Positions 10,478 to 40,582 of a stretch of DNA of 48,141 nucleotides are shown here, piece by piece (position 1 is the stretch's first letter; every line of letters begins with the position of its first letter). Source of the DNA: an uncultured virus (IMG/VR IMGVR_UViG_3300010163_001408) (taxonomy: Duplodnaviria; Heunggongvirae; Uroviricota; Caudoviricetes). The notes below the pieces were generated by a model. The model did no database searches and had not been told where the DNA came from. It saw only the letters and a program-made list of their open reading frames with translations. Made by a program: the position numbers and the translations under genes. Location of the stretch: the IMG/VR virus record IMGVR_UViG_3300010163_001408. One strand, 5' to 3'.

Positions 10478-11398
10478 ATGATTAATCCTGGCGTAATTTA
10501 TAATGTAACAGGTAGGTATATGAATGGCAGAGAAGTCATAGGGTATCACCTTGTGGGTGAAGATGGAAGTCAGGCACAAGAAAATAGAGAAAGAGTAATA
10601 TTTCTTATTGGCAAGGGTGCTATAGCTAATATGCGTATTCAAATAGATGCTAATAAGGAGATAATATTAAGAGGTAAAGGTGTGAACCTGAACAATTTAC
10701 CTGTATATGATCAAGGTAAGCAACAGTTCAGAAATAATAACATATCTCAATCAGCAGCAAACACTGGAGTGTCAGTTAGTAAACATGTAGACTGTGCAAA
10801 TCCAATGGGGCAATACAGAATATTGCGTAGAATAATGTACAAAAATAAATGTTTAGGCTATGAAGTACAGGATTACAGCGGTGCAATAACTAGAAAGAAG
10901 CGTGAGCAAGTAATTAATTTAGCAGTAGCAAGATTAATAAGTAACGCTGTAGCACAGAAGTGTACAAGACCTAATAGTACAGTACCAGAGGTAATATTAA
11001 GAGGTGTAGGTTGTGATTTAAAAGCATTGCCTATTCTAATTGTTAATGATCAAGGAAAAATAATTGATCCACTTACAGACAAGAGTAAGTTGGCAGTCAG
11101 AGGAGTTTACATGAAACATGCAGGAATGTTACATAACAATATAAGTAAGAAGGATACATTTTTTGAAGCTGGCGACTTTATAATATGTAATCCTGATGGA
11201 AGCATAGATATACAAAAGAAACACATAGCAGAAAAGAGTTATGTGCAAGACAAAAATAGAGATAGTGCAGTGTGTGACGATTATTTAACCAATGCAAAAT
11301 ATTATTCAATAGAAATATTTGGTGGGAATCCTATAACATTAGGAGAACAGATAATAAAATCCTGGGCAATACTTGTTCCAAATAAAGTAAGAGCATAA
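10478..11398 (+). CDS. Hypothetical protein with two copies of the window's recurrent ~70-aa domain plus a C-terminal GDFII-type domain
   Basis: IGYHL...IANM...ILRGKGVNLNNLP and LGYEV...ISNA...ILRGVGCDLKALP; C-terminal EAGDFIICNPDG. Confidence 0.8.
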   Translation: MINPGVIYNVTGRYMNGREVIGYHLVGEDGSQAQENRERVIFLIGKGAIANMRIQIDANKEIILRGKGVNLNNLPVYDQGKQQFRNNNISQSAANTGVSVSKHVDCANPMGQYRILRRIMYKNKCLGYEVQDYSGAITRKKREQVINLAVARLISNAVAQKCTRPNSTVPEVILRGVGCDLKALPILIVNDQGKIIDPLTDKSKLAVRGVYMKHAGMLHNNISKKDTFFEAGDFIICNPDGSIDIQKKHIAEKSYVQDKNRDSAVCDDYLTNAKYYSIEIFGGNPITLGEQIIKSWAILVPNKVRA

Positions 11399-11408
11399 AG
11401 ATCTAATG

Positions 11409-11450
11409 TAATAGGTCATTCAGATAAACACTGAATGACCTATTATTTAT
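11409..11450 (+). terminator. Intrinsic terminator
   Basis: taataggtcattcag / ctgaatgacctatta perfect 15-bp stem just after the stop codon. Confidence 0.85.
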
Positions 11451-11695
11451 TGCATAGATATAATATTGGATATACAATAAGTAAAAATCATATACCATAA
11501 ATTGTGTAATTAACATTTTTTAATAAACATATTAATTAAAGGGTAATTTATGGAATAATAAAATAATTTAAAACAACACGAGAATACTATTTTCCGACAT
11601 TTAACAATAATAGTATAATACATTAGGATAAAATTGATGGTATCATTAGGGGTAAAATTTTGGGTGGAAATTTTCCGGATTTTTTGGTGAGATAA

Positions 11696-11769
11696 GGGGT
11701 AGGGGGTAAAAAGTAGGGAAAGGGGAAAAGGTAACAAAAGTAGGGAAAGTGGGAAAAATGGGACGGGGG
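11696..11769 (+). other. G-rich tract with G-quadruplex-forming potential
   Basis: Eight runs of three or more G; 11743-11769 GGG-AAAGT-GGG-AAAAAT-GGG-AC-GGGGG fits the canonical G4 pattern; direct repeat aaaagtagggaaag occurs twice. Confidence 0.7.
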
Positions 11770-11989
11770 AAGAAAACAGAATAGTTGTTCACTATAAATG
11801 ACACAATTTACAATAAAGGCTAAGCATGACAGCAAAAACGGGTATAATTAAGCATAAATAATCAATAGCATTAAACTGTAAAAGAAAGGTTTGGTTTAAG
11901 TCATATATAAAAGGATAATATACAATATAAAAACTAAAATCATGTTAGATTAATAATTAAGCCAATGGAATAAAAGTTCAGGAATATAC

Positions 11990-12018
11990 TTGACTTTTTA
12001 ATAAAAATATGATATAAT
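11990..12018 (+). promoter_or_regulatory. SigA/sigma70 promoter with extended -10
   Basis: TTGACT-N17-TATAAT with TG at 12010-12011, directly upstream of ATG 12036. Confidence 0.8.
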
Positions 12019-12035
12019 AAGAGAGGCTAAGAGAA

Positions 12036-13079
12036 ATGAGTAAGAACAGTACTTTAGCAAGTACGTTACAGATGCCTGGGCGTATAACGAAGGATGAATC
12101 CTTCAAGGACATTATAAGATATAAGGGTGTAACATCAACATTATTAAAATTTGCCATTCCAGAACTTAACAATACAAGTGTTGTTGATGTGGCAAAAGCT
12201 ATTATAGATACAAGACCACACAGTGGAATAATATCAAATTCAGACCTACTTGATGATGAAGTAGACTTCATGCCATCGGAATCAGGTACACGTGATGAAA
12301 AGAATATAATTCATGATGCTGTATTATGGTTAGGTATTGATGAATTACCTCAGACAATAAATGTTAAGGTAGGTGATGGTGGGCACATTACAATTAACCT
12401 AGAGATGCAATCTAAAGTAACTAATTTAGGTTATAATATATTTACAAGGCTAATGTATTATGGGTGCTCACTGTTTAGAGATACAGTCAAAGCAGGTGAT
12501 ACTAAGTATGCAAATGCTAATAAGGTGTATACCATATGGTTTTGTAATGAAGTATTACCACTCAATTACTATAATGGGGAAATTCCCTTAACAGAATATG
12601 TACATCGTTGGGGATTCAGAAGATTCTATACAGATATACTTCGTTGGCAGGCACCCAAAGAAGTTGAGACAGACTTTGTAGAAGTAGTTGTTGTAGAAAT
12701 ACCAAAGATACCAAAAGGTAAAACCACTGCTGAAGATCTTGTATATGATTTATTTAAAGATACAGGTAACTTCCTAAGTAATTTAGAGAAAGTTGAAAAA
12801 GTAAACTTAACAAAAATAAAGGGAGGCATGTTGAAAGTGATAGATTATGAGGTAATGTTAGAGAAAAGAGTAGCAGAGGCTAAGGAAGAATTTAAGGAAG
12901 AAATTAAAAAAGAAGTTACAAAAGGTAGCCAATTAGACATAGCAAAAAATGCTATTACCTGGTTAAAAAAGCAGAATCCAAAGGTATCATATGACAAAAT
13001 AATAAAGCAAGTAGGCATAATGCTAAAACTTGATACAGATATAGTAGAAGAGTTAAATAAGCAGTATAGCATAAGCTAA
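12036..13079 (+). CDS. Rpn family PD-(D/E)XK nuclease (recombination-promoting nuclease / putative transposase)
   Basis: KDESFKDII N-terminal motif, HDAVL...INLEMQ catalytic pattern, RLMYYG...VYTIWF, charged helical C-terminus. Confidence 0.7.
   Translation: MSKNSTLASTLQMPGRITKDESFKDIIRYKGVTSTLLKFAIPELNNTSVVDVAKAIIDTRPHSGIISNSDLLDDEVDFMPSESGTRDEKNIIHDAVLWLGIDELPQTINVKVGDGGHITINLEMQSKVTNLGYNIFTRLMYYGCSLFRDTVKAGDTKYANANKVYTIWFCNEVLPLNYYNGEIPLTEYVHRWGFRRFYTDILRWQAPKEVETDFVEVVVVEIPKIPKGKTTAEDLVYDLFKDTGNFLSNLEKVEKVNLTKIKGGMLKVIDYEVMLEKRVAEAKEEFKEEIKKEVTKGSQLDIAKNAITWLKKQNPKVSYDKIIKQVGIMLKLDTDIVEELNKQYSIS
12831..13079 (+). CDS. Putative in-frame internal small protein (Rpn-S-like intragenic antitoxin, ~80 aa)
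   Basis: Internal GGGAGG at 12821-12826 followed by in-frame ATG 12828, TTG 12831 and GTG 12837. Confidence 0.5.
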   Translation: MKVIDYEVMLEKRVAEAKEEFKEEIKKEVTKGSQLDIAKNAITWLKKQNPKVSYDKIIKQVGIMLKLDTDIVEELNKQYSIS

Positions 13080-13163
13080 TAAAACAAGTAAACATAATAC
13101 CAAAATTTAGAGAACTATACAAAAACCAAGCCATATCCAAAAAATATAAGTATAAACATCACA

Positions 13164-13210
13164 AAAATAGGATGTCATTAAAATAGCAAATGGCATCCCA
13201 TTTTTATTTT
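13164..13210 (+). terminator. Intrinsic terminator
   Basis: ggatgtcatt / aatggcatcc stem with a T-run. Confidence 0.7.
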
Positions 13211-13271
13211 TAAATATCCTAGAAATTATACATAAAAATACTTAAAGATATTAAAATTTTAATTTAAGGGA

Positions 13272-16148
13272 ATGATTGGCATGAATATTTTAAATACAAA
13301 ACTCACTGATGAACAGAAGGAAATCTTTGAGGAATGTAAATTATCATTACAAAAGCATAATCAAGCTGCTGTGCTGTTAAGCATGGGTGGAGGAAAATCG
13401 TATATAGCAACTAGTATTGTAAAATACTTAAAGAAAAATAAAAAAGACTTTAATATCATCTGGATTACTACATTGAATGACATGAACAAGGCCAAGAGTT
13501 TAATGTCAGACGAGTACTTTAGCGAATCAATTACTTATGTAACATTTAATAAACTGTGGAGAGATAATAATTATGCAGACGAGTTAGCTAATATGCATAA
13601 GAATTATGGTCTTATTGTAATTGATGAGGCTCATCATGCCTTGGCACCCCAGACCTATAAGGGAGTAAAACAAATACTTGATAAATTTAACAAGGCAAAG
13701 TTACTAGTAATGACAGCAACTAAAAGACGTTACTCAGACAGAAAACATATATTTGAGTGGTTAACACCTAAGCTTAAACTAGGTGTAGATTACAAGGATA
13801 GAGGATTAAAATACGCAATAAATAATAAACTGACATGTGATTTTGTTTATAAATCATGTAATATTCAAATGATTAAAGATTATTGCAATGCATTAAAATT
13901 ATTGCAGGAATACTCAGTAATATTTAAAGAATTTGATGATTTAATTGTTAAGTCAAATAAAATAGTGGATGACTACACAAAGAATATATTTACTAAGCTT
14001 GGGGAACAAATGCAACAAGACCTTGAAGTAGACGGATCACAAGGTGATAGATGGTTTGTTTTCTTCAGTACAATATCAGAAATTCAACAAACAAAGGATA
14101 ACATAGAGGAACTGTTTAAGATTGCATATAGCAATACAGCAGCTAAAATAAATATAATTGAGTATCATTCAGAAATAACGGATAACAATGTTATAAATAA
14201 TATAATCTGTGAGCCTATAAAGGGTCAAGTAGATGTTATATTGACATGCAATAAAGGTTCAGAGAGTTTACATCCTAAGAATACACGTGGCATTATTATG
14301 CTCAGGAAAACATTATCAGGTACAGTGTTTGAGCAGCAGATAGGCAGAGCACTTGAGATTAGAGAAGCATGTTCATATGTAAAATATATTTATGACTGTG
14401 TGGATAATAAGAAAAACATTGATAAAAATGAATCAATTTACAATGGTAAAGAAGCATTAGACGAAAGAAGAATATTAAGTGCGTTTAATGAAATAAGTAA
14501 AAGTGATGATGTACTAAATATGTTAAATAAAAAGTATGGTGATACCTTTGATGTTGAAGTAATGGACTCTGACTTAGAGGATATACTAAAAAGATATGAG
14601 AGTGTAAAAGATTTATTTGAAAGTTATAGCCAAGCTGAAAAAATAGACTATACACTAAGACATGAATTAGGACCTGACTATATAAATAAGATATTAAATA
14701 ATGGTGTGCTCCTAAGAAACTCATTGGAGCAGTTTGATACAAGGAACAAGTCAAACTTATTGACAGTGTTTAACAATATCCAAAATAAATTTATCAATGG
14801 TTTCTTTGGTGAGCATTATTGTGATGAAGAACCAGTAAATGATATGTACTATAAGTTGTTCGGGACATTTAACAACATTTTATACTTAACACCTGGATGT
14901 ACAGGGGACAGTGGATATAAACTTTCAGACTTAATTAAAATAGCGAATGAAGTAGCTAAATATAACTATGACTATAGAAAGAGTATATCACGAACAAAAG
15001 AGTTAAAGACAGAGATAGCTAAACTAAGGGCACTTAATTTGCAAGGAAGACTAAGTGAATCTTATCAGAAATTCTGTATCAGAAATAAGATAGACATTAA
15101 TGGAATATATACAAACTTAATAAAAGAGGTATTAGATTCCAGTGAAATTAGTAAATACCCTAATTTACTAAATGAGTTTAAAACTCTTGCTAAGAGACTT
15201 AGTACATTTAAGAATGGCTATGATGGTAGGGAGTTAGCAGACGAAGATAAAGAAGAACTCTACAACATTTTAGTTAAAGAGCAAATATTTACCTTTAAGT
15301 ACAAGCAGAATCCATACGGATACCAGACATCAACTGCCATAAACCTCACTTACAGAAGTATATTAAAATTAGCAAAACACTTAGTATCCAGAGAAGATTA
15401 TATAAAAGCATATAGAATTATGCGAGGAATAGTGAGGGCATATATATTAAAAGATGATAATAGCATAGAAAGGCTAATGAGTAAAGATGATGAATATGCA
15501 ATCTTAGATCTCATAAAACGTAGTGAACAAAATAATGTTACATTATATGAATTGTATATGCTTGAGAATTTAGATATAAGGGTACTCAATAAGGTTAACA
15601 CAAACACTAACATTTACAAGCTAATCAATATAACACCTTTTGGAATCATTTATAACAGATTTATAGAACAACAGTCAAAAAATGATTATATAAAATTGTC
15701 CAACTACAAGATAGAAGGTTTACCAGAGTGTGCTCGGAAGTTACTTAGGAACAATAGGTATGTACAAGGAAAACAAACCATGGAAACAAATAGTTTGTTG
15801 GATAAAGAAAGTAAGACAGTTGAACAAGCAGTAGAAAACTTAGTGTTTGATAATGAAAATAGTATCAGTATCATTAAAAATGCAATTTCAAACAATGAGA
15901 TAGATTGCAGAAAAATATTAAAATATGCAATTCCATCAAACATATATAAACAAAACACTAAGTGCTTCAATAAGGCATTAACAACAGACTGGAGCAGTTT
16001 AGATGAAGCAACAAAAAGTGTAATAGTAAGGAGCCTTGAAAAGAGTGAAGCATGCTATGACTCGATAGTGGAAAACCTTATTGAATATGAGATAATACCT
16101 ACTGAACAAATGGAGTTTGCTAAGAAATTAATTGAAATAGCACAGTAG
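13272..16148 (+). CDS. Superfamily 2 DEAH helicase (ResIII/restriction-R-like) with long helical C-terminal extension
   Basis: LTDEQ, MGGGKS, IDEAHH, MTAT and QQIGRALE motifs in the first ~380 aa; ~580 aa unassigned. Confidence 0.85.
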   Translation: MIGMNILNTKLTDEQKEIFEECKLSLQKHNQAAVLLSMGGGKSYIATSIVKYLKKNKKDFNIIWITTLNDMNKAKSLMSDEYFSESITYVTFNKLWRDNNYADELANMHKNYGLIVIDEAHHALAPQTYKGVKQILDKFNKAKLLVMTATKRRYSDRKHIFEWLTPKLKLGVDYKDRGLKYAINNKLTCDFVYKSCNIQMIKDYCNALKLLQEYSVIFKEFDDLIVKSNKIVDDYTKNIFTKLGEQMQQDLEVDGSQGDRWFVFFSTISEIQQTKDNIEELFKIAYSNTAAKINIIEYHSEITDNNVINNIICEPIKGQVDVILTCNKGSESLHPKNTRGIIMLRKTLSGTVFEQQIGRALEIREACSYVKYIYDCVDNKKNIDKNESIYNGKEALDERRILSAFNEISKSDDVLNMLNKKYGDTFDVEVMDSDLEDILKRYESVKDLFESYSQAEKIDYTLRHELGPDYINKILNNGVLLRNSLEQFDTRNKSNLLTVFNNIQNKFINGFFGEHYCDEEPVNDMYYKLFGTFNNILYLTPGCTGDSGYKLSDLIKIANEVAKYNYDYRKSISRTKELKTEIAKLRALNLQGRLSESYQKFCIRNKIDINGIYTNLIKEVLDSSEISKYPNLLNEFKTLAKRLSTFKNGYDGRELADEDKEELYNILVKEQIFTFKYKQNPYGYQTSTAINLTYRSILKLAKHLVSREDYIKAYRIMRGIVRAYILKDDNSIERLMSKDDEYAILDLIKRSEQNNVTLYELYMLENLDIRVLNKVNTNTNIYKLINITPFGIIYNRFIEQQSKNDYIKLSNYKIEGLPECARKLLRNNRYVQGKQTMETNSLLDKESKTVEQAVENLVFDNENSISIIKNAISNNEIDCRKILKYAIPSNIYKQNTKCFNKALTTDWSSLDEATKSVIVRSLEKSEACYDSIVENLIEYEIIPTEQMEFAKKLIEIAQ

Positions 16149-16190
16149 CATAGATTTGGCATTAAAAATTAAATAGGAATTACACTACAA

Positions 16191-16264
16191 TTTTAGTCTA
16201 TACATTAAGATAATTAGATTGGCATATAAAAGATAATGTATAGGCTAAAAAATTGGCCTTTTTT
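16191..16264 (+). promoter_or_regulatory. Overlapping antiterminator-like and terminator-like hairpins upstream of the topoisomerase B gene
   Basis: 17-bp stem 16191-16207 / 16234-16250 overlaps the hairpin aggctaa / ttggcct plus T-run (16242-16264). Confidence 0.45.
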
Positions 16265-16352
16265 AATATACTAAAAGTAATTTAATTTTTTATGGTGGTG
16301 TTTGTAAAAATATTAGATGCATTTCAATTACAGCAGGAGGATAAATAGAATT

Positions 16353-18359
16353 ATGGCTCAGCATGTTACAAGTGATTCAAGAAATATGAAACGGTTGAAA
16401 GATGAGCAACAGATAAGGCAGAGACCCGCACCAACATTTGGTACTAATGATGAAAAAGGTGCATTTCATAGTGTAGAAGAAATTATAGCAAACTCTATTG
16501 ATGAGGCTCGTGAGGGATTTGGTAAAAGCATTAAAGTTATAGTGGAGCAAGGCAACACTATAACTGTAGAGGATGATGGACGTGGACTTCCTATGGATTG
16601 GAATGAAGCAGAGCAAATGTACAACTGGGAGTTAGCATTATGTACATTATATGCATCAGGGAAGTATGATTCAAGTCAGTATGGACAGTCACTAGGACTT
16701 AACGGATTAGGTTTAACAGCTACTCAGTATGCATCATCATTTATGGATGTTTGGTCAACATATGATGGTAAAACACATTATATGCACTTTGAAAAGGGTA
16801 GACCTATAGGAGAGTTGCAAATACTTAAGCCAATTAGAGAGGGTACTGGTACGAAAATAAGATTTCAGCCTGACCCAGAAGTGTTTCCAGCATTAAAGAG
16901 AGTGCCATTAAGCAAGGAGATGTTTCTACCACTACTTAATAGCCAAGCTATGTTGCATGATAAACTTGAGATATTGTTCACTCATTATGATTTTCAGAAT
17001 CAGACCAAGCGATTCTATTATGAAGGTGGCATGGCAGAGTTTGTAGATGCTGTAATCGAGGATAAGAAGATGTTATCTTCAGCAGCGTCATTTAATGATA
17101 AGGATACTGGTACGGATGAACCAGATAACATAGAAGATTATCCACCTTATGAAGTAAATATGAGAATAGCATTTAATTTCTGTAGAGATTCAAGCTTAAT
17201 TCAGATATATCATAATGGCTCATTCATGTTTGAAGGTGGAACAACAGTAGATGGCTTTGAATATGGTATAACAAAAGCGTTTACAGATGTAGGACGTGCA
17301 ACAGGTAAATTAACAAGAGCAGATAAGTTCTTATTCAAAGACATAGCTTCCATGTTAATATGCGTGGCAAGTACAGATGCACCTGGTAACAGGACATTCT
17401 TTAAGAATCAAACAAAAGGTGCCATAAACAATCCATTTATTGGTAAATGCTTTGCACAGTTTGTATATAATAAAGTGAGATATTGGTTAGAAAATAATAA
17501 AGCATCAGCAGACAAAGTATTAAGCGAAGCTATTGTAAATAAAAAGGCTAGAGAAGAAGGGGATGCTGTTAGTAAAAAAGTAATTAGCAGCTTGAGTAAA
17601 CAAGTAACCTTTGGAAATAAGCCTAAGGACTTTAAAGATTGTTCAAGTAAAAATATATTTGAAAGAGAGTTATATATTGTAGAAGGACGTTCAGCATTAG
17701 GATCAGTAAAATTAAGCTGTGATTCAAAATTCCAAGGCGTTATGCCTGTAAGAGGTAAGCCAATCAATTGCTTGAAAGAAAAGATTACAAGAGTATTAAA
17801 CAATGACGTAATAGTGGAACTATACAGAGTATTTGGTTGCGGCATGGAAGTAAAATCTAAATATATAGATAATCTTCCAGAATTTGACTTAGACAAGTTA
17901 AATTGGGGTAAGTTAATAATATGTACTGATGCTGATGTAGATGGTATGCATATAAGATGTTTACTAATTACTATGTTTTATATATTATCACCTACATTAT
18001 TAAAAGCAGGTAAGGTATATATTGCAGAAACACCCTTGTATGAAATGACATACAAGAAAGAAACAAGATTTGCATTTGATGATAAAGAGAAAGAAAGAAT
18101 ATTAGAGGAGTTTAAAACATTAGGTGCAAAAGAAAGTCAAATAAAAATTCAGAGATCAAAGGGATTAGGTGAAAATGACCCAGAGATGATGAGTATTTCA
18201 ACTATGAAGCCTGAAACAAGAAGATTAGTACCTGTAGAATATCCCGAGAATAGCAGCGATTTAATGACTTATTTCAATGCATTACTTGGAGATGACCTTG
18301 AAACAAGAAGAATGTTGATTGATGAATACTTCGACTTAACACCTGATGATGTAGACTAA
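16353..18359 (+). CDS. gyrB: Type IIA topoisomerase subunit B (GyrB/ParE family)
   Basis: GHKL motifs EIIANSIDE, VEDDGRG, GLNGLG; TOPRIM VEGRSA, PVRGK, TDADVDG; QRSKGLGE. AGGAGG at 16335 favours ATG 16353 over 16317. Confidence 0.93.
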   Translation: MAQHVTSDSRNMKRLKDEQQIRQRPAPTFGTNDEKGAFHSVEEIIANSIDEAREGFGKSIKVIVEQGNTITVEDDGRGLPMDWNEAEQMYNWELALCTLYASGKYDSSQYGQSLGLNGLGLTATQYASSFMDVWSTYDGKTHYMHFEKGRPIGELQILKPIREGTGTKIRFQPDPEVFPALKRVPLSKEMFLPLLNSQAMLHDKLEILFTHYDFQNQTKRFYYEGGMAEFVDAVIEDKKMLSSAASFNDKDTGTDEPDNIEDYPPYEVNMRIAFNFCRDSSLIQIYHNGSFMFEGGTTVDGFEYGITKAFTDVGRATGKLTRADKFLFKDIASMLICVASTDAPGNRTFFKNQTKGAINNPFIGKCFAQFVYNKVRYWLENNKASADKVLSEAIVNKKAREEGDAVSKKVISSLSKQVTFGNKPKDFKDCSSKNIFERELYIVEGRSALGSVKLSCDSKFQGVMPVRGKPINCLKEKITRVLNNDVIVELYRVFGCGMEVKSKYIDNLPEFDLDKLNWGKLIICTDADVDGMHIRCLLITMFYILSPTLLKAGKVYIAETPLYEMTYKKETRFAFDDKEKERILEEFKTLGAKESQIKIQRSKGLGENDPEMMSISTMKPETRRLVPVEYPENSSDLMTYFNALLGDDLETRRMLIDEYFDLTPDDVD

Positions 18360-18372
18360 AAATAAAATTAAT

Positions 18373-18414
18373 TAGTAGTCATATCATTCTAAATTGATAT
18401 GACTACTATTTTTT
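18373..18414 (+). terminator. Intrinsic terminator
   Basis: tagtagtcatatca / tgatatgactacta perfect 14-bp stem plus T6. Confidence 0.9.
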
Positions 18415-18470
18415 ACCTTCATTACAAAAAGAAGATATATTTTTAATAATTTAAAGATAGGAGATTAAGC

Positions 18471-19442
18471 ATGGGATTTTCAGATTATATTAAACAAGAT
18501 AATTCAGGCAATATTATAGTAGCAATAAATAATTTACCTAGTAATGCTTTTATTGATGCAATTAAAGTAAGAGATTTAGCAGAAGTAAGAATACTAGATA
18601 GAAAAATAAATAACATAGAGCCAGGTGGAAAAGATGTTAAACTAAGAAGTCTTACAGGTGAAACATCTATGCTTTCAAGAAAAGAATTGATAGAAAGATA
18701 TAAGACAATTCGTGGTAAGAGTGTTACATTAGCATTTTTTAGGCATGAAAAAAATTATTTAGTAGAAAGTACCTGCAAGGAACCTTATAAAGTCATGAAA
18801 TTACCAAGTAATTGCATTGGAAATTTTGGGGGTAAAAGGGTAGAGCCAGGTAGTTACATAGTATGCAAAACAGATGAATCAGGTAACACAACAGTTGGTA
18901 TTATATCTCCATCAAGGTTTAGACAAATGTTTAAGATACCAATGCAAGATGTGATTAAAAGAAATATGAATGGCAATAAGAATAAGAATTTCACACTATT
19001 TAACAAGCCAAAGCAGTTTAGAAAAAAGCCAAACATATTAGCAAAACAGCCAGCAGCACCTCAAATAACAGTAGCACAGCAGAAACCAGTGCTGAATCCA
19101 TCAATGCTGAGAAAACAGCCAGTGACATCTCAAATAACACAGACAAACAGGCAATTTACAGTAGATAATTCAAAATTCAAGAGTATAAACACACCTACAA
19201 CAAATTATAGATTTAGAATAACAAGAAGGATAGTAAGTGTTCGTAATACAAAACAGTTATTAGGCTATGAAATACAAGAGATACAAACAGGTAGAGTAAA
19301 ATCATTCCAGTTAAATAGAGTAATGAAAATGTGTGAGATGCAATTAGTTGAGAATGCCATGATAGTAACACATACAAATGGAATGAAATACTTAAGAGGA
19401 AATGGAATAGTACTTGATAATTTACCTAAAATATTAGCATAG
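18471..19442 (+). CDS. Hypothetical protein: PGSYIV-type domain, Q/P-rich linker, C-terminal copy of the recurrent ~70-aa domain
   Basis: C-terminal FRITRR...LLGYEI...VENA...YLRGNGIVLDNLP. Confidence 0.8.
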   Translation: MGFSDYIKQDNSGNIIVAINNLPSNAFIDAIKVRDLAEVRILDRKINNIEPGGKDVKLRSLTGETSMLSRKELIERYKTIRGKSVTLAFFRHEKNYLVESTCKEPYKVMKLPSNCIGNFGGKRVEPGSYIVCKTDESGNTTVGIISPSRFRQMFKIPMQDVIKRNMNGNKNKNFTLFNKPKQFRKKPNILAKQPAAPQITVAQQKPVLNPSMLRKQPVTSQITQTNRQFTVDNSKFKSINTPTTNYRFRITRRIVSVRNTKQLLGYEIQEIQTGRVKSFQLNRVMKMCEMQLVENAMIVTHTNGMKYLRGNGIVLDNLPKILA

Positions 19443-19455
19443 AGGAATAGAAGCA

Positions 19456-20064: not shown

Positions 20065-20109
20065 AGCTACAATTTACAATATTTTAAATACAGTATGTTT
20101 TGCAAGTAT

Positions 20110-20156
20110 ACAATGCTGATAAATTAGGATACATATTTACCAGCATTGTTTTATTT
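20110..20156 (+). terminator. Intrinsic terminator
   Basis: acaatgctgataaat / atttaccagcattgt stem (one mismatch) plus T-run. Confidence 0.7.
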
Positions 20157-20211
20157 AAGATTAAATTTTAAAATTATTATTGAATAATATTTATGGAGGA
20201 TACATTGAAAA

Positions 20212-22461: not shown

Positions 22462-22498
22462 AAATAAGAATTAACTTACTGGATCGAGGATAATTTAT

Positions 22499-28286: not shown

Positions 28287-28324
28287 GCATAAAGAAATAA
28301 GTACTGGAAAGGAAAATAATACTC

Positions 28325-30735: not shown

Positions 30736-32622
30736 ATGGACAAATTTAATCAAGATGAAGAATTTGTAATAGACGATGATGAGGAAATCTTTGGCTTAGA
30801 TGATGACATTGGCATTGAATTAGAAGAAGATGAAGATGATGAAGATGATGAATTGGTAGACTTTGGCGATGATCCAGAAGAAGAAACAGAGGAAGCACCT
30901 GTACAAGAGCAAGCACAATCAAATGAATTATTTAATGATAATAATTATATGGATAATATAGAGTTTGATAATTCTGCTGAACTTATACCAGACAGTAATA
31001 ATACATTTGCGTTAGATAATGAGGAATTTAATTTTGATGAATCAGATTTCACATCTGAAAAAGATGATTTTACTAACGTGTCAGACAGTCTAAATGAGAA
31101 CATGTCAATATATGATGAAGAAAATGCATATAATTATATAGTAGATACACCAAATGCTAATATGTCAAGCAATATAGAATTTGATGAACTACCAGAAGAT
31201 GATATAGACGAATTGAATGTAGACTTAACTACAGCAACTATAGATGATACTAACGCATCAGATTATGATGGGTCAGTGGTAGATAGTAGTGATCTTTATG
31301 ATGAGGATGAAGACACACAAACTACCAATGAGGTTGATTTTATTACTGATAGTGGTGGCATAGTAGTTCAAGATAAAAATGATAATAATGAAAATGGCTT
31401 CAAAATTACTTATGTAAACATAGATAATATAGCAATAACACCAAGAATTAGAAAAATGCACTCAGTAGAAGGCTTAGTGCAATCTATACAGTCAACTGGT
31501 TTATTAATGCCATTAATGGTAGCTCCATTGGCTACAGAAGGTATGTATGTGTTATTGGATGGATACAGACGTTTACAAGCATGTGCAAGAGCAGGAAAAA
31601 CTAAGATACCTTGTGTTATAAATACTAAAGTAAGCACACCTGAAATACCCATACTAGAATCAATGTATAATCATTCACAAAAATATAGTATCAAGGAGCA
31701 GATTGATTATATTGATTACCTAGAAAAAGAAAAAGGTATTATGAATCCTGCTATGATTGAGTATCTACTCCAAATGAATAGTGGTGACTATACAAAATTA
31801 AAAGATATACTTAATGATAATGACGATGACATTGTAACAAAACTGATTGATGGTGTATATGATATAGCAACTGCATTTAAAAAGCTGGAACAACGTCGTA
31901 AGAAAGAATCTCTTGAAGAGAAAGAAAATAAAAAAGCAGCTAGAGTTTATGATGATGCAGAGGAATCTGGTGTAAATCAGATAGAAGGTGCAGGAGAAGA
32001 AGCAGATGGTGCTGCTCTAACAGATGAGCAATTAGCATCATTATCAATAAACCTTGAAAATTTTGATAATGACTTAGAGGATACTTCCTTAGGTGAAATG
32101 ATAGAGGAAGATAAAAAAATTGAAGGCTTTGAACCACACTCACAAGAAGTTGGAAAGCGAGAGTATGTGGATCCTATCATTAAAAAATCAGTTATGACAC
32201 GAGATAATTCTACATGTAGATGTTGTCTCAGAGGCGGAGAACAATATGTTGATATACTTGATTTTCATCATATTACACCAGTTTTTATGGGTGGAGCAGA
32301 TACTGTTGATAATGGTGTTATGTTATGTGTAGCGTGTCATAGATTAGTTCACTTATACAGTACAGGAGATTTACACATAGATAGAGCATTACTTGAAGGT
32401 GATTATGACTCATTAACAGAAGATCAGAAGTCAAGATTTCCAAATGAAGAAATCTTTGAAGATGAAAAAATGCGATTCAAAAGAATCTTAAAATTTGGTG
32501 GTGTTATCCGTAAAGGTATAAGGGACATGGGTATGAACAGAGAACAATATAAGAAAGAGCATCCCAATACAGGTATAGGCAGGCGTAAACCGGGTGTGAA
32601 TGCAGAGCAGGAAATACTATAA
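30736..32622 (+). CDS. ParB/Srx-domain protein with acidic N-terminal region and C-terminal HNH endonuclease
   Basis: LVQSIQSTGLLMPL...LLDGYRRL ParB motif; RDNSTCRCC...DFHHI...GGADTVDNG..LCVACH HNH; ~200-aa D/E-rich N-terminus. Confidence 0.85.
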   Translation: MDKFNQDEEFVIDDDEEIFGLDDDIGIELEEDEDDEDDELVDFGDDPEEETEEAPVQEQAQSNELFNDNNYMDNIEFDNSAELIPDSNNTFALDNEEFNFDESDFTSEKDDFTNVSDSLNENMSIYDEENAYNYIVDTPNANMSSNIEFDELPEDDIDELNVDLTTATIDDTNASDYDGSVVDSSDLYDEDEDTQTTNEVDFITDSGGIVVQDKNDNNENGFKITYVNIDNIAITPRIRKMHSVEGLVQSIQSTGLLMPLMVAPLATEGMYVLLDGYRRLQACARAGKTKIPCVINTKVSTPEIPILESMYNHSQKYSIKEQIDYIDYLEKEKGIMNPAMIEYLLQMNSGDYTKLKDILNDNDDDIVTKLIDGVYDIATAFKKLEQRRKKESLEEKENKKAARVYDDAEESGVNQIEGAGEEADGAALTDEQLASLSINLENFDNDLEDTSLGEMIEEDKKIEGFEPHSQEVGKREYVDPIIKKSVMTRDNSTCRCCLRGGEQYVDILDFHHITPVFMGGADTVDNGVMLCVACHRLVHLYSTGDLHIDRALLEGDYDSLTEDQKSRFPNEEIFEDEKMRFKRILKFGGVIRKGIRDMGMNREQYKKEHPNTGIGRRKPGVNAEQEIL

Positions 32623-33101: not shown

Positions 33102-34073
33102 ATGGGAATAACATTAGATGAGGCATTACAAAATGAGATTATATCTAAAAATATAATAGACTTGTTACCTAAGAAATGTAAGTGTGGTGCAAGACTTGAG
33201 TTTTCAGATTCATTAAGAGAAATAAGATGTACTAATAAAAAATGTAAGCAACACATAATAGCTAGATTGTCTAAGTTTGTAGAGAAAACAAACATAAGTT
33301 TATCAGCTATTGACATAGAAGATATAGTAGAAAAATTAAAAATAATATCACCATACCAAGTATTATTATTACCAATAGCATTTAAAGAGGAAAACAGCAA
33401 GGTAAAATTATTAAACTTGCATGACAAAAATAATGTATTACAAGATATAGAAAATTTAACAAGTAAAGAATATATGTTATATGAGATAATCGAATTATGT
33501 GGCATAGATAATATATCTAAAATAGCATATAAGATATTTAATAACTTTGATTCAATTGATGAAGCTTATGATGAAATAGAAACTGGACAACTTTCATTTA
33601 TAAATGAAAGACTCGGAATAAAAAATCAAGACAGTAGTATAATTTCATTAGAGATATATAATTTATTATTAGACTTAAAAGATGAATTAATATTTGCAGA
33701 AACACTTTTTAAAATAAAAGGTGACGCAAGAGAAAAATTAAATATAGCATTTTCGGATAATATTCAGCCTTATATAAACACAGCAGAACTGTTGGATATA
33801 TTAAATCAAAACAAAAAATTCAGATTTAATCATATAGTAACAATAAATGACAAGACAGATATTTTAGTTAGAAATGCTAATTCGGCAAACAGTAAATTTA
33901 GAGCAGCAAGAATAATAAATGATAAACATATAGCAGAACTGATGAATAAAGGAGAATTGACATTAGATGAGATAGGTACATTTAAAAATGAATTTAAACC
34001 TTTGGGAAGCAAAATATATATTGACAAACTTGAGAATATAATGAAACGTATACAAGAGTTTATAGGAGAATAG
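33102..34073 (+). CDS. NAD+-dependent DNA ligase C-half-like protein (Zn finger, HhH, BRCT)
   Basis: PKKCKCG...RCTNKKC..HIIARLSKF Zn finger; GIDNISK HhH-like; TINDKTDILV...SKFRAA BRCT-like. Confidence 0.7.
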   Translation: MGITLDEALQNEIISKNIIDLLPKKCKCGARLEFSDSLREIRCTNKKCKQHIIARLSKFVEKTNISLSAIDIEDIVEKLKIISPYQVLLLPIAFKEENSKVKLLNLHDKNNVLQDIENLTSKEYMLYEIIELCGIDNISKIAYKIFNNFDSIDEAYDEIETGQLSFINERLGIKNQDSSIISLEIYNLLLDLKDELIFAETLFKIKGDAREKLNIAFSDNIQPYINTAELLDILNQNKKFRFNHIVTINDKTDILVRNANSANSKFRAARIINDKHIAELMNKGELTLDEIGTFKNEFKPLGSKIYIDKLENIMKRIQEFIGE

Positions 34074-34078
34074 CTTAT

Positions 34079-34543
34079 ATGGAAGAGAAGGCAAAGTATA
34101 GAATAATCAAGAAACAGCTTAATGGTATAGAAATACAAAGATTTATACTTGAGTCAATTGATGATGGAAAACAAGCAGCAGTATCTTTAGAAGATACAGT
34201 TAAATTGGCTAGAGTAGGTAAACTATTAGGGGTTACACCTTTATTAGATTTAACAACTGGAGAATATATAATAAATTTTAATGGCACATTAAAAAATATT
34301 CAGGAACATAACAGTATAAGACTCCGATTACTTTGTAGGTTGGTTGATATAACTGGAAAATGTATAGGGTACAAAGCACAGGATAATAGTAATAAAACTT
34401 ATAAGATAAGCATTAATAAAGCATGGGAGTTAGCAATACATAATTCAGTAATAAACGTAGTAGGAAAAGTAATAAACAATAAGAAAGTACTATTAGGCAT
34501 TAACGATTTCAGTTTAAGTCAGTTACCAACAATGATGGAATGA
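34079..34543 (+). CDS. Protein composed solely of two copies of the recurrent ~70-aa domain
   Basis: YRIIKK...VKLARVG and LRLLCR...CIGYKA...VINV...LLGINDFSLSQLP. Confidence 0.75.
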   Translation: MEEKAKYRIIKKQLNGIEIQRFILESIDDGKQAAVSLEDTVKLARVGKLLGVTPLLDLTTGEYIINFNGTLKNIQEHNSIRLRLLCRLVDITGKCIGYKAQDNSNKTYKISINKAWELAIHNSVINVVGKVINNKKVLLGINDFSLSQLPTMME

Positions 34544-34753: not shown

Positions 34754-35257
34754 ATGGTAAATTATGAAATTAAGTCAGAGTACGTAAATGTAGTAGACAA
34801 TGAAAATAATGGTCTGACAAAGATGAAGTTAACAGATGCAATAGCATTAGCAGAGAGTACAAATAAAGATGTAATTCTTCTTAGTAATAAAGGAGAGATT
34901 CCTGTAGTAAAAATAGGGGATTACAATAAATTTATATATGAAAAGCAAAAGAAAGAAAAGGAAAATAAAAAGAAGGCAAGATTAAACTCGCAGGAAACTA
35001 AGGAAATTCGCATAAGCGATGCAATAGCACAGCATGACCTTGAAATTAAAGCTAAAAATGTGGATAAAATATTACATAATGGTGATAAGGTGATGCTTGT
35101 TATAAGATACAGGGGAAGATCAGTAAAATTCATAGAAGAAGGACCAAGCAAGTTAGCACACCTGGAAGGATTAATAACAACAGACCATAAGATTGAAAGA
35201 ACACCTAAGATTGAAGGCAACAGAGTTTACATGGTAGTGGCTCCATGTAAAAAATAG
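34754..35257 (+). CDS. infC: Translation initiation factor IF-3
   Basis: VNYEIK...VNVVD, PVVKIGDYNKFIYE.QKKEKE, KEIRIS..IAQHDLEIK, GDKV...YRGR, PKIEG. Confidence 0.93.
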   Translation: MVNYEIKSEYVNVVDNENNGLTKMKLTDAIALAESTNKDVILLSNKGEIPVVKIGDYNKFIYEKQKKEKENKKKARLNSQETKEIRISDAIAQHDLEIKAKNVDKILHNGDKVMLVIRYRGRSVKFIEEGPSKLAHLEGLITTDHKIERTPKIEGNRVYMVVAPCKK

Positions 35258-36209: not shown

Positions 36210-38378
36210 TTGAAAATGCATTTAATAGCAGTAATTTGGGATAGTCCAGATAAAAACAATATATTAGCATTTAGAATATTAGATTCAGATGCAAAAATAG
36301 CAGTAGATCAACCTTATGCAGCAGTTATGCATGTTGTTTCTAAAAAGATTGCACCTATATATGGAATAGAATATGATACAACATCTAATAAGTTGAAGGG
36401 TTCAAATGGATCATTTGAAAGATATCCAGCAATATGCAATAATAAAATAATTACAAATTCTTTAGTCATAATAGCATCCATTGATAACAAAGGATACAAA
36501 GTTTGTAACTTTATGGGAACAATGAAAAGTGCTCCTGTAAACGCAGTACTGCGTTTTGCCGAAAAAGCAGGCATAGCAAATGGAAAAATAGTTAATAAAG
36601 GAGACAAAAGATTTATAAGTGCAATCAATGGTAGTTATGATAATATACCTTTAGCACAAGATAAAGAATTAAGTAAATCATTAGGAAACAATAGTGCTGA
36701 AACAGCTATTAAAAATTCATATAGTAATAGGTTTGCAAGAGTAATTACTGGCGTACCTGCTGTGGATTCTAAATTAAAGGTATTAGATACAATTACAGGC
36801 ATGACAGTAGAACAAAAGCTGGCTTATGTAATGTTGGCATTAAAGAAAGTAAGACCTTTCTATTATTCTATATTTACAACACTTAATAGAGTTGAAGCCA
36901 ACCCAGCTGACGGAATAAGTACTATGGCAGTTAGTATAGACACATTGTACTTTAATTCAGACTTTATAGTGGAAACAAGCCTTGAGGAATTGTTATTTAT
37001 AACAATACATGAATTATATCACATAGCTATGAGACATAGAGCAAGAGAAAAAGGCAGAGATCATAGAATATGGAATGAGGCATGCGATTATTATATAAAC
37101 AAGTCAATAGCAGTTGAGTTTGGTTTAAAGGAGCAAGGAGATAAAGCTAATGTACAAGTTAAAGATAGGGATAACAACACAGTCCATGGATCTACATATG
37201 TAATAGAATTACCATGCAGTGGGTTATACAACCCAGCTATAAACATAGATATAGATACACCAGAATCCATATATGAAGAGTTGTCAGAATTGAAAAATAA
37301 TGGGGAAGGTGGAAGTAGCACCAACAGTAATGGTAGTGGTAATGATTCTAATGCCAACAATAAAAATAAGAACAACGGATCTGGAAATGGAGATGGACAG
37401 TCTGAAGATGAAGATGGGCAGTCAGAATTAGAGAAGTTAGCAAAAGGTGAAACAGAAGAAGACGAGAATGAGCAAGATGAACAAGGCAAACAAGGCAAAC
37501 AAGGCAAACAAGGCAAACAAGGCAAACAAGGCAAACAAGGCAAACAAGGCAAAGATGGTGAACAGCAAGAGACTGAACAGCAAGACGAGAATGATGGATT
37601 AACAGGAAAAATGTTTAGGGGCAGAAAGATACCTAAACATCAGTCAGATATAGTAGATGACAATAAAACTAAATCAATGTCACCTGATCAAATTGATCAA
37701 ATGTCTAAATCTTTATTAACAAGAGCAGTTACAACACATAGACAGAAACATAGTTTTGGTGGAGAAGCAGGGTCATTCCTTGAGAGAGTTGTAGAAAGAG
37801 CATTAGCACCTAAGATAGATTGGAGGTCATTACTTAGGAATAAGCTTACAAAGGCAACACAGAAGATCAATACATTTGCAGCACCAGACAGAAGATTTAG
37901 AAGCAGAAACATGATAATGCCTGGACCTAAACCTTTGGAAAATGATGCACTTGAAAATATTAAAATATGTGTGGATACCAGTGGTTCTATATCAGATAGA
38001 GATATAGGTATAGCGTTTGCTCAGATAGAGCAGCTGTTTAAGAACTTTAAAGCAGAGGCGGAGGTATTATATTGGGATACACAGATAAGAGCAATATATC
38101 CATTTAAAGATATATTTGAATTAGTGAGAACTAAACCTATGGGTGGTGGTGGAACTGATGCTAACTGTGTGTTTGAATACTTTGAAACAAATAGAGATTA
38201 CAAGGTAGGAATAAAGAAACCACCTTCAATAATAGTGATATTTACTGATGGTTACATACCAGAAGTTGAACCAAAATATAAAAAGTATCATAACAAAGTA
38301 ATATGGGTTGTAAACGATAATTTAAGATTTGAAGCACCATTTGGTCAAATGGCACAGTTTAGAAATAGTGAAAATTAG
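36210..38378 (+). CDS. HExxH metallopeptidase-like plus VWA domain protein (DUF2201-type) with N-terminal recurrent-domain pair
   Basis: IHELYHI...WNEACDYYIN; DWRSLLR; MIDAS VDTSGS, GGGTD, FTDG; low-complexity G/N/Q linker. Confidence 0.85.
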   Translation: MKMHLIAVIWDSPDKNNILAFRILDSDAKIAVDQPYAAVMHVVSKKIAPIYGIEYDTTSNKLKGSNGSFERYPAICNNKIITNSLVIIASIDNKGYKVCNFMGTMKSAPVNAVLRFAEKAGIANGKIVNKGDKRFISAINGSYDNIPLAQDKELSKSLGNNSAETAIKNSYSNRFARVITGVPAVDSKLKVLDTITGMTVEQKLAYVMLALKKVRPFYYSIFTTLNRVEANPADGISTMAVSIDTLYFNSDFIVETSLEELLFITIHELYHIAMRHRAREKGRDHRIWNEACDYYINKSIAVEFGLKEQGDKANVQVKDRDNNTVHGSTYVIELPCSGLYNPAINIDIDTPESIYEELSELKNNGEGGSSTNSNGSGNDSNANNKNKNNGSGNGDGQSEDEDGQSELEKLAKGETEEDENEQDEQGKQGKQGKQGKQGKQGKQGKQGKDGEQQETEQQDENDGLTGKMFRGRKIPKHQSDIVDDNKTKSMSPDQIDQMSKSLLTRAVTTHRQKHSFGGEAGSFLERVVERALAPKIDWRSLLRNKLTKATQKINTFAAPDRRFRSRNMIMPGPKPLENDALENIKICVDTSGSISDRDIGIAFAQIEQLFKNFKAEAEVLYWDTQIRAIYPFKDIFELVRTKPMGGGGTDANCVFEYFETNRDYKVGIKKPPSIIVIFTDGYIPEVEPKYKKYHNKVIWVVNDNLRFEAPFGQMAQFRNSEN
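37482..37553 (+). repeat. Perfect 9-bp tandem repeat (CAAGGCAAA)x8 encoding (QGK)8
   Basis: Eight identical in-frame units within the linker of the VWA protein. Confidence 0.97.
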
Positions 38379-38402
38379 AATATATAAGGAGGCACAAGAA
38401 AA

Positions 38403-39563
38403 ATGGCAGAAACAATGAATATGATGGAAATATCAGTAGACACTTTCATCAATGAAATCAAAGAGGAATTGGAAGATGAAAACTACAATCCCGTCATAGG
38501 ATTAGGTAAGAGCGGTGTAGGTAAAACAATGAGCATATATGAACTTACACAAGAGTTAGGAATAGGATTCTGTGAGTTGCGCTTAGTAACAATGACAGAA
38601 GTTGATATGCTTGGTATACCTATCATTGATGATGCAGGTAGAACAACATATGCAAGTAATGCATTACTTCCAAATGAGAAAATTGATGGTTCAAGAGGTA
38701 TATTGGTACTCGATGAGGTTACATCAGCAACAAGTACTTTACGTGCAGCAGCTTATCAGTTAATGGATTCCAAAAGAGCATTAGGCAATTATAAGTTACC
38801 ACCACAATGGAAGGTAGTAGGTTTAGGCAACGGAATTGGAGATGGTGGTGTATTCACAGGTATGGAAAATGCATTTTTGTCACGTGCTACCTGTTATAGA
38901 ATTGAGCCAAACCTTGAAACTTGGAAGAAATGGGCAATTAAGAATGGAGTAAATCCTTCTATATTAGCTTATTTAACATTTGATCCAAGTAAGATACATG
39001 AGATGGATGAGAATGAAATTGCATCTGTATTCCCCTGTCCTAGATCATGGACAGCATTGAGCCAAAAGCTGAACAAGAGAGAGGAAAAGAATGGTGGGTA
39101 TTTACCTACAGATAAAGTTGAGTTGTATGCAGCAGGTACAGTAGGTGTAAAGGTTGCATCAGCATTTGCATCATTCTACAGCTATAACAAGAAGACAATT
39201 TCACCCGAGGATGTTTTAAGTGGCAAAGCAAAACCTGAAGAAATCAAGTCACTAGAATCAGAAGTAGTTTATATAGTAATTCAGTCAATTATTAAGCAGT
39301 TAAGTGCTGAATTAAAAGCTGGTAAGCTTCCTGGAATAGGTGAGTTCAAACCAGATGCACTACAGAGGGCAGTAAATGTTATAAATTGGATAGTAGGTAT
39401 ATCCAAGTATAAATTAGATTATGCAATTACAGCCTTAACAGATATATCTGGTGGTATACCTGAAATGCAAGACCTTGTATTAATGAATGATGACTTTAAT
39501 GATATGTGTCCAGACTTCATTAAATTTACAAGTGACCTTCAGATAGTATTTAAGGCACAATAA
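38403..39563 (+). CDS. MoxR/AAA_5-like AAA+ ATPase
   Basis: GKSGVGKT Walker A, ELRL...DMLGIP, LVLDEV Walker B, AFLSR arginine finger, PCPRSW. Confidence 0.88.
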   Translation: MAETMNMMEISVDTFINEIKEELEDENYNPVIGLGKSGVGKTMSIYELTQELGIGFCELRLVTMTEVDMLGIPIIDDAGRTTYASNALLPNEKIDGSRGILVLDEVTSATSTLRAAAYQLMDSKRALGNYKLPPQWKVVGLGNGIGDGGVFTGMENAFLSRATCYRIEPNLETWKKWAIKNGVNPSILAYLTFDPSKIHEMDENEIASVFPCPRSWTALSQKLNKREEKNGGYLPTDKVELYAAGTVGVKVASAFASFYSYNKKTISPEDVLSGKAKPEEIKSLESEVVYIVIQSIIKQLSAELKAGKLPGIGEFKPDALQRAVNVINWIVGISKYKLDYAITALTDISGGIPEMQDLVLMNDDFNDMCPDFIKFTSDLQIVFKAQ

Positions 39564-39589
39564 ATAATATAAAGGGAGGTTAAAATGTT

Positions 39590-40582
39590 ATGGTTACTGT
39601 GGGAATTATAGTAGGCATTGATAAGCACAATAACATGTCTATGTATAGAGTGTTGCAAGCGCAGATAAATAAGAAGGCAGAGAATCAATACGATTGGAAG
39701 TTTAATTGTACCATGATGGATGAACATAGGATAATAAATTCTTTATTGAGTGGCCAAAAGTATTTGAATATAACACTTGATAAGGATAACAAGGGTAACC
39801 CAGTAGTTAAGGGTAATTCAGGTTCCCTTGATAGATTCAACAATAAGAATTACAAACCTTCTGTAATTTTATCTCAGATACAAAATGAAGAAGGTAGGTT
39901 ACTAGGATATAAAATAGCAAACTATGATGGAAATGTAAAAAATATAGTGCTTAAAGAAATGATTGCATACGGAAACAGGGTAACAAAGGCAGGAGCAACA
40001 CCAGTACAGAATGCAATATTTGTTCCTTCAGAAGAGGATAGGGCAGGACACTTTAAGAGTTATCCTAATTGCAATTTCTTAGTTGAGGTAATCAGGTCAA
40101 ATAAGAATGCACATGCTGAGGTAAAAAGGGTAAACACCCAGCAGAATAAAAAGACACTCAGCAAACTTGAAGAGATATACAGTCCACAACAGATTGCACA
40201 GTTAAAGCTAGGTAAGCAAGCAGGATTAGATATAAAAATATTTGCCAATCCAGCATTGAGTCCATTACAGATGCAGGTACTTAGAGAAGGACTTGCAAAT
40301 AAAGTAAATGTAAGACTTGTGGCATTTCCAGAATTTAATGTGGATTTAATGAGATACTACATTGATGATATGGAGTATGGTTTAAATATAAAGAAATATT
40401 TAAACCATAAGTACACATTACAGCAAGTGTCACAGTTAAGCATAGCAGCTGAGGAAGGTTTGGATATATCAAAAATGAGTAATCCTAAGTTAAGTGCAGA
40501 GGAAATGAGTGAAATACGTGAAAGACTTGAAAGAAACATTTGGAAAGATGAACTAGTAAAGAAAGATGGCAGCTGGTATTAA
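39590..40582 (+). CDS. Protein with N-terminal recurrent-domain pair and C-terminal ~24-aa helical repeats
   Basis: KGNSGSLDRF...LLGYKIANYDG matches the 36210 N-terminus; about five QM..(L/I)R.GL..GLD....NP-type repeats. Confidence 0.8.
   Translation: MVTVGIIVGIDKHNNMSMYRVLQAQINKKAENQYDWKFNCTMMDEHRIINSLLSGQKYLNITLDKDNKGNPVVKGNSGSLDRFNNKNYKPSVILSQIQNEEGRLLGYKIANYDGNVKNIVLKEMIAYGNRVTKAGATPVQNAIFVPSEEDRAGHFKSYPNCNFLVEVIRSNKNAHAEVKRVNTQQNKKTLSKLEEIYSPQQIAQLKLGKQAGLDIKIFANPALSPLQMQVLREGLANKVNVRLVAFPEFNVDLMRYYIDDMEYGLNIKKYLNHKYTLQQVSQLSIAAEEGLDISKMSNPKLSAEEMSEIRERLERNIWKDELVKKDGSWY

Follow-up and report, generated by a model that had tools for sequence, protein, structure and literature searches.

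A tandem DUF3892-like domain carried by five proteins of a large phage-like element and its relatives

In the available parts of two papers, DUF3892 (PF13031) is described in two settings: as small proteins of CapH/CapP-regulated operons, with a predicted part in defence (Lau et al. 2022, bioRxiv 10.1101/2022.04.27.489752), and as a domain fused to Min-Wnt effectors (Burroughs et al. 2025, PMC12419801). The accessible text of the latter paper (PMC12419801) also likens the DUF3892 fold to double-stranded RNA (dsRNA)-binding and ribosome-hibernation domains. MoxR-vWA pairs, in turn, have been described as a chaperone with its co-chaperone, and in the part of Iyer et al. 2021 (PMC7824862) that is available the peptidase-fused form of the pair is proposed to act in virion assembly or processing in jumbo phages. 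Here we describe a stretch of 48,141 nucleotides from an uncultured virus of the class Caudoviricetes (IMG/VR record IMGVR_UViG_3300010163_001408), the whole of which we call the window. Five proteins encoded in it carry nine copies of a single domain of ~75 residues. Whereas DUF3892 has been described, in the partial sources above, either as small operon proteins or as a partner of Min-Wnt, here the domain forms a tandem pair on proteins of 154–722 residues, including the VWA component of a predicted MoxR-vWA pair.

All carrier genes lie on the + strand. The first, g10478 (10478..11398, 306 residues), has an N-terminal pair (copy 1, residues 1–79, 10478..10714; copy 2, residues 106–190, 10793..11047) followed by a C-terminal domain of ~115 residues. 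In g18471 (18471..19442, 323 residues), flanked by the genes of gyrase B and gyrase A, an unrelated N-terminal part and a low-complexity linker precede a single C-terminal copy (copy 3, residues 242–322, 19194..19436). g34079 (34079..34543, 154 residues), whose gene has a ligase C-terminal-like gene on one side and the IF3 gene on the other, consists of the pair only (copy 4, residues 1–78, 34079..34312; copy 5, residues 77–154, 34307..34540); copy 4 is acidic and has lost the ending motif. g36210 (36210..38378, 722 residues) continues from its N-terminal pair (copy 6, residues 2–78, 36213..36443; copy 7, residues 76–151, 36435..36662) into a DUF2201_N metallopeptidase-like domain, a Gly/Lys/Gln-rich linker and a DUF2201 VWA domain, and g39590 (39590..40582, 330 residues) from its own pair (copy 8, residues 1–85, 39590..39844, the most divergent of all; copy 9, residues 86–161, 39845..40072) into a C-terminal helical-repeat region. 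Between these two pair-bearing genes lies g38403 (38403..39563, + strand, 386 residues), which encodes a MoxR-type AAA+ ATPase without a copy. Translations and an alignment with a common pattern confirm that the nine segments are present in the genes named by the original prediction, an earlier note made from the sequence without database searches.

That note had also claimed that the segments are one homologous domain, and this claim held in leave-one-out hidden Markov models (HMMs), external profiles, profile–profile comparison and predicted structures. Pairwise BLAST is insufficient to see it, the self-comparison of window proteins giving only E 0.016–0.03 between carriers. When HMMs were built with one protein left out at a time and searched against all 331 six-frame open reading frames (ORFs) of the window, the omitted protein was the best non-training match each time, with E-values of 2.7e-10 for g18471, 9.3e-8 for g10478 and 6.2e-4 for g34079; g39590 (0.029) and g36210 (0.16) also came out on top, but are not significant alone. 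An HMM of 300 external instances, which includes no window sequence, ranks exactly the five carrier ORFs first (5.6e-54 for g10478, then 5.4e-26, 1.6e-13, 5.7e-5 and 0.061; next ORF, 0.58), and the same search of the window ORFs revealed no tenth copy. Profiles made of orthologs only (26 for g34079; 41 full-length ones for g10478, 29–58% identical) cross-detect g10478, g34079 and g18471 at E-values from 1e-3 to 7e-15 and reach g39590 and g36210 only at 0.005–0.96.

Profile–profile comparison with hhalign, in which the family profiles lack the window's own rows and P-values are those of single pairs, links eight of the nine copies at 91–99.7%, against 0.1–5.6% for unrelated-domain controls. The g34079 and g10478 pairs match over 148 columns (99.6%, P 3e-24), which shows that the two-copy unit itself is homologous between these proteins. 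Within each of them the two copies match one another, indicating internal duplication (94.0% in g34079, 99.2% in g10478), and their second copies match at 99.4% (P 7.7e-22). Both g34079 copies match the core profile (first copy 99.6%, second 99.7%), and the g18471 copy matches the second copy of g10478 (98.9%). The pairs of g36210 and g39590 are each other's closest relatives (98.4%, P 6.6e-15, 110 columns). Taken singly, the first copy of g36210 matches the broad core profile at 91.4% over 63 columns, and its second copy matches the core at 94.2% and the first g34079 copy at 94.4%; the second copy of g39590 matches the core at 93.7%, over the first 40 columns only, and the g18471 family at 95.7% over 56 columns. 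The ninth copy, the first of g39590 (copy 8), has no direct link to the core (1.4%) and is connected only via the first copy of g36210 (95.6%, 64 columns).

Predicted structures were compared for the copies of two carriers. AlphaFold2 modelled g34079 from 4 sequences with a predicted local distance difference test (pLDDT) of 84.8 and a predicted template modelling (TM) score (pTM) of 0.51, and g39590 from 72 sequences with a pLDDT of 90.8 and a pTM of 0.71. The order strand-strand-strand-helix-strand-strand is found in all four modelled copies, including the doubtful copy 8, in which strands (E) and helix (H) span E2-13, E16-30, E33-44, H45-53, E61-65 and E71-75; copy 9 has E91-98, E104-110, E116-120 and H121-133, followed by strands. 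In g34079 both copies fold confidently and show no confident mutual packing, resembling beads on a string. The original prediction would have fallen had the segments lacked a common fold; instead, profiles join eight copies directly and the ninth through g36210, and four of four models agree in element order. We conclude that the nine segments are copies of one domain, copy 8 being the weakest case.

The normal form of this domain is an N-terminal tandem pair. A profile of the nine copies, searched against 1.84 billion proteins, finds 623 representative proteins at E ≤ 1e-3 (clusters at 50% identity), 176 of them at E ≤ 1e-10. In a sample of 153 proteins, made up of the best 150 of the 623 matches and three further proteins, two copies are detectable in 149 and the pair lies within the first 30 residues in 145; 63 proteins consist of the pair alone, and 82 end in a tail of 60 residues or more. 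BLAST sorts the 88 tails analysed (84 and four from the window) into 32 clusters; apart from that of the VWA ortholog P0122, they are without a Pfam family. The domain thus behaves as a portable module on diverse proteins, as had been proposed. The largest tail cluster (46/88) is that of the g10478 C-terminal domain, and the N-terminal part of g18471 joins it by BLAST. Two candidate assignments stayed weak: kinship of the g18471 N-terminus with the g10478 C-terminal domain has the BLAST cluster link, but hhalign gives only 16%, and a PGDYG-like identity of the g10478 C-terminal domain was seen in 2 of 42 members (best E 0.066).

g10478 has no Pfam, PHROG or NCBIfam family, and NCBIfam returned nothing on the five carriers except one low-complexity match. 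At E ≤ 0.001, g39590 has 76 proteins in its family, the window's own included; among cultured phages it matches two unannotated faecal phage records only, in the C-terminal part alone. That region (residues 166–330, 40085–40582, + strand) comprises six AlphaFold2 helices, the last five spaced 26 residues apart and sharing a repeated conserved loop motif, and is a helical-repeat solenoid. Its best fold matches, a designed helical repeat (VIA Z 7.5) and the TALE-like BurrH (Z 5.4), lie in a range that is uninformative for repeats.

The five carrier genes keep their order in four related IMG/VR records (G001–G004 below), which contain 13, 10, 8 and 6 profile matches. In relatives, g8942, g9919, g10478 and the helicase gene keep their order. 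The order gyrB–g18471–g19456 occurs in G001 and G002, and gyrB is directly upstream also in G004, that is, in three of the four. Another kept order runs from the ligase-C-like gene through g34079 to IF3 and, further on, from the VWA gene through the AAA+ gene, g39590 and SmpB to the ClpB-like gene; its ligase-C-like–g34079–IF3 part is seen in loci L001, L003 and L004, and the VWA–AAA+–g39590 part in four of four relatives. Two relatives encode an extra pair-bearing protein of 801–959 residues just upstream of the VWA gene. There are further fusions as well: a full-length NAD-dependent DNA ligase of G001 (NCBIfam LigA, 491.8 bits, core from about residue 102) bears one minimal copy (residues 5–62) ahead of the ligase core, the same minimal copy stands at the N-terminal end of a DUF285 protein and of a 205-residue protein, and in a metagenome-assembled genome the pair heads a BspA-type LRR_5 protein. 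Because of the 623 clusters, the gene order in four related elements and these further fusions, the module is to be regarded as old and clade-wide. The label 'element-specific', which the original prediction had attached to it, was not borne out: the clusters at E ≤ 1e-3 are too many for it, and the five genes stand in the same order in the four related elements. The metagenome-assembled genome with this LRR_5 fusion, one of the Lachnospiraceae, is the only one among 301 genomes of its family to carry the domain, with relatives on contigs of 1.8 and 10.3 kb that resemble this element; as a lead to a host it stayed weak.

Two side observations concern G001. Between its lipoprotein-like and VWA genes lies an IS605 OrfB / Cas12f-like TnpB gene (L001 4252-5610, + strand). 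At its end (L022 1184-2182), three short consecutive ORFs of 70, 108 and 148 residues contain one or two g10478-like copies each and may represent a paralog, fragmented or recently duplicated, at a contig end.

The suggestion in the original prediction that the ending of the segments resembles that of DUF3892 proved to be a good lead. In the window, all scores stay below the Pfam cut-off. The best of them is that of the g18471 copy, 16.2 bits (E 0.015) against a gathering cut-off of 22.3 bits, and the other four carriers have no DUF3892 match at E ≤ 1 in whole-protein scans. Of the database relatives examined (149), DUF3892 is matched at E ≤ 0.01 by 20 and over the cut-off by five; the next commonest Pfam family, Cren7, accounts for four weak partial matches. 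Six of 42 g10478 orthologs match DUF3892, and the four related elements yield three matches of 13.5–14.2 bits, none over the cut-off. The ESM Atlas model of g10478 residues 5–80 aligns with an 84-residue cluster whose members carry PF13031 in 99% of cases, with 72 residues aligned and a TM score of 0.73 by target and 0.22 by query, the score being under the tool's bar. Moreover, the modelled copies fit the DUF3892 element order given in the available text of Burroughs et al. 2025 (PMC12419801). A search of BFVD matched one uncharacterised Bacillus phage protein (E 5.6e-4), and among solved structures searched by sequence the domain profile found nothing below E 0.15 and the g10478 family one chance-level row, and no solved DUF3892 structure turned up there for comparison. 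The usual genomic setting of DUF3892 is not seen here, as no regulator pair of the helix-turn-helix/ImmA type stands beside the carriers in the window. By profile and model comparison, we thus assign the domain to the DUF3892 superfamily, of which it forms a divergent branch, mostly missed by the Pfam model, and not a member by the Pfam threshold. We found no description of this tandem phage branch in the literature on DUF3892, PF13031 and DUF2201, supplements aside and with Burroughs & Aravind 2020 represented by passages citing it.

The VWA carrier belongs to the second system introduced above. g36210 passes the cut-offs of both DUF2201_N (93.2 bits; cut-off 23.2) and DUF2201 (58.5 bits; cut-off 26.4), and the product of the adjoining gene, g38403, matches the phrog_1297 ATPase (E 1.3e-61) and, below the cut-off of 22, Pfam AAA_5 (18.6 bits). 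The two are therefore a predicted MoxR-vWA pair with a peptidase-fused vWA, sharing DUF2201_N, DUF2201 and the adjacent AAA+ gene with the system of jumbo and N4-like phages. Homologs of g36210 occur in 465 phage records, and those of N4-like phages align only from query residue 192-217, which indicates that the pair is an add-on. Compared with the jumbo and N4-like system, what this clade adds is the N-terminal DUF3892-like pair and a third gene, g39590, that bears the pair too. The linker joining the peptidase-like and VWA domains of g36210 (37290-37560, + strand) is Gly/Lys/Gln-rich, with seven GKQ triplets in a run, and yields spurious collagen and tail-fibre matches.

Starting from what was observed directly, namely copy homology, shared secondary-structure order, tandem N-terminal architecture, tail diversity and clade conservation, we infer both an anchoring role and a ligand. 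We favour, at a probability of about 0.4, the reading that the pair is a portable anchoring module which would put unrelated parts at one common target, most likely a nucleic acid or nucleoprotein. Such an architecture, a small domain that is usually doubled and N-terminal, joined to unrelated parts and present on several carriers in each genome, is characteristic of modules for shared localisation or anchoring. The pair would place the C-terminal parts that follow it at the common target: the VWA/metallopeptidase partner of the MoxR ATPase, the helical-repeat protein and the ~115-residue domain; in relatives, the anchored parts would include NAD-dependent DNA ligase and BspA-type leucine-rich repeats. 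The target may be the DNA of the element or its replication or packaging intermediates. A nucleic-acid target is suggested by basic charge, conserved Arg and Tyr residues, the ligase fusion and the replication genes nearby. Indeed, in seven of the eight copy families of g10478, g34079, g36210 and g39590 the median isoelectric point (pI) is 9.2–9.6 and the net charge +3 to +6, and among the 300 instances conservation of polar or aromatic positions is highest at a Tyr (89%) and two Arg (70% and 64%). As for neighbours, g18471 lies between gyrB and gyrA, g10478 near the helicase gene and g34079 beside the ligase-like gene. The likeness that Burroughs et al. 2025 (PMC12419801) draw between the DUF3892 fold and dsRNA-binding and ribosome-hibernation domains is a further pointer to nucleic acid.

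Several results weigh against anchoring to nucleic acid. Foldseek searches of the PDB with g34079 and g39590 gave nothing at E ≤ 0.001, and the best VIA matches reached Z 4.1 for g34079 and, in a wide search, Z 5.1 as the highest score on any copy of g39590. Among the fold-search matches listed, dsRNA-binding and hibernation-factor chains are absent, the best domain matches (Z 4.1-5.1) being unrelated small beta domains. The family of the first g34079 copy, with a median pI of 5.3, is an acidic exception. Many of the most conserved positions of the domain are Gly, Asn, Pro or Leu and are possibly purely structural. The VWA/peptidase and leucine-rich-repeat tails are protein-handling parts and not DNA enzymes. 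Finally, gene neighbourhood is weak evidence where, as here, the element is large and one strand holds all the genes.

Some of the same observations could be read as the original prediction read them, with the pair as a protein–protein address that brings the carriers into one complex or marks clients for the MoxR AAA+/VWA/metallopeptidase machine; this is a serious, if unlikely, alternative. The VWA/peptidase gene and g39590 flank the AAA+ gene, their pairs are mutually closest (98.4%), the three-gene order is kept in four of four relatives, and in two of these the protein of 801–959 residues just upstream is pair-bearing as well. A chaperone with its co-chaperone, proposed in the accessible part of Iyer et al. 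2021 (PMC7824862) to assist virion assembly or processing in jumbo phages, would suit such a function. However, the VWA protein itself bears the tag, which is therefore unlikely to be a mere client mark; in the g34079 model the two copies do not pack together confidently; three of the five carriers are encoded 2-26 kb away, among replication genes; and in N4-like phages the VWA/AAA pair occurs untagged. Given the VWA protein's own pair, the ligase fusion and the replication-gene positions, a shared external target fits at least as well as delivery to the machine.

A more specific version, which we consider improbable, would make the pair a handle read by the trio of MoxR AAA+, VWA-MIDAS and metallopeptidase, in a hitherto undescribed client-delivery or processing system of huge phages. 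In Midasin/Rea1, the MIDAS domain on a MoxR-like AAA+ protein recognises a small N-terminal domain of several clients. The likeness lies in a MoxR-type AAA+ ATPase with a VWA/MIDAS protein and in several proteins that share one small N-terminal domain; the difference is that the shared domain here is not ubiquitin-like and that the VWA protein itself carries it. If this version were true, the N-terminal module would mark those proteins that are to undergo ATP-driven remodelling, packaging or cleavage; they would include a ligase, repeat proteins, a gyrase-associated protein and subunits of the machine itself.

Targeting to the virion or procapsid, with the carriers packaged or attached there and processed by the tagged metallopeptidase, is one of the weaker options and seems about as improbable as the handle. 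Phage T4 uses a similar logic, with a capsid-targeting sequence and a prohead protease. The tag is N-terminal in 145/153 proteins, one carrier is peptidase-like, many relatives are small, basic and pair-only (63/153) and leucine-rich-repeat fusions exist, all of which would be in keeping with this role, as would the virion-assembly role proposed for MoxR-vWA-peptidase in the available text of Iyer et al. 2021 (PMC7824862); yet four Pfam models (Terminase_6N, Terminase_6C, tail sheath and HK97 capsid) recognised no capsid, terminase or sheath gene over their cut-offs in the four related records. Also among the weaker options, and the least probable, is that the pair-bearing proteins, chiefly the pair-only ones, are counter-defence decoys or sponges imitating DUF3892 of bacterial defence operons: the partial sources place DUF3892 in predicted defence operons under CapH/CapP regulation (Lau et al. 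2022, bioRxiv 10.1101/2022.04.27.489752) and in fusions with Min-Wnt effectors (PMC12419801), and the family occurs in 1 of the 301 genomes, on small element-like contigs, but the ligase, VWA/peptidase and helical-repeat fusions and the strict conservation of five paralogous carriers are unlike a sponge, and no defence-related neighbour was seen.

The element itself is large. The window is 30% G+C with all plausible genes on the + strand, and the contig on which its proteins are recorded has 172,141 bases, so that the element measures at least 172 kb; relatives of g39590 are found on contigs reaching 600 kb, and five IMG/VR records of 27–268 kb contain them too. We term it 'phage-like' on its IMG/VR classification alone because the terminase, sheath and capsid models found nothing over their cut-offs. 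Among cultured phages, there was no DNA match to window positions 10000-30000 and no protein match to g34079 or g10478. Among the products of the window are helicases, gyrase B and A, a DnaB-like helicase, a RuvC-like resolvase and a ParB-HNH protein. Genes for IF3 (34754-35257), SmpB (40875-41345), a ClpB-like double AAA+ protein (42297-44696) and a tRNA methyltransferase-like protein (3637-4173), all on the + strand, form a translation and proteostasis complement typical of very large phages.

Other features adjoin the carriers. The match of the ligase-like gene g33102 (33102-34073, + strand) to NAD-dependent DNA ligase is confined to the C-terminal part (phrog_3869 positions 387-638 of 656). 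An adenylation domain could not be recognised in the window; g29434 (29434-30606), upstream of g33102, is without a family match, and the ParB-HNH gene (30736-32622) separates the two. G001 keeps a g33102-like gene in addition to the full LigA elsewhere. Between g10478 and the helicase gene sits g12036 (12036-13079, + strand), with a weak transposase-like PHROG match (E 5e-4); it looks like an insertion, the helicase gene following g10478 directly in relatives L006 and L008. The gene at 24132-25520 (+ strand; phrog_3339, E 2.4e-84), which is homing-endonuclease-like and Mom-like in its C-terminal part, has a related copy in G003, upstream of the g18471 ortholog, where gyrB otherwise sits.

DUF3892 is a widespread domain and, in the available parts of the cited sources, appears in bacterial defence operons; a large sister branch barely seen by Pfam is now defined. 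Its architecture is strict: in very large phage-like elements, each genome has several carriers, and an N-terminal tandem pair stands before tails of many unrelated kinds. As a large family with a clean definition it lends itself to experiments, and its function is one that we infer. The 154-residue, pair-only g34079 offers an experimental handle, and a partner found with it would probably carry over to DUF3892 generally. The target of the pair would likewise point to the site of action of the phage MoxR/VWA/peptidase machine.

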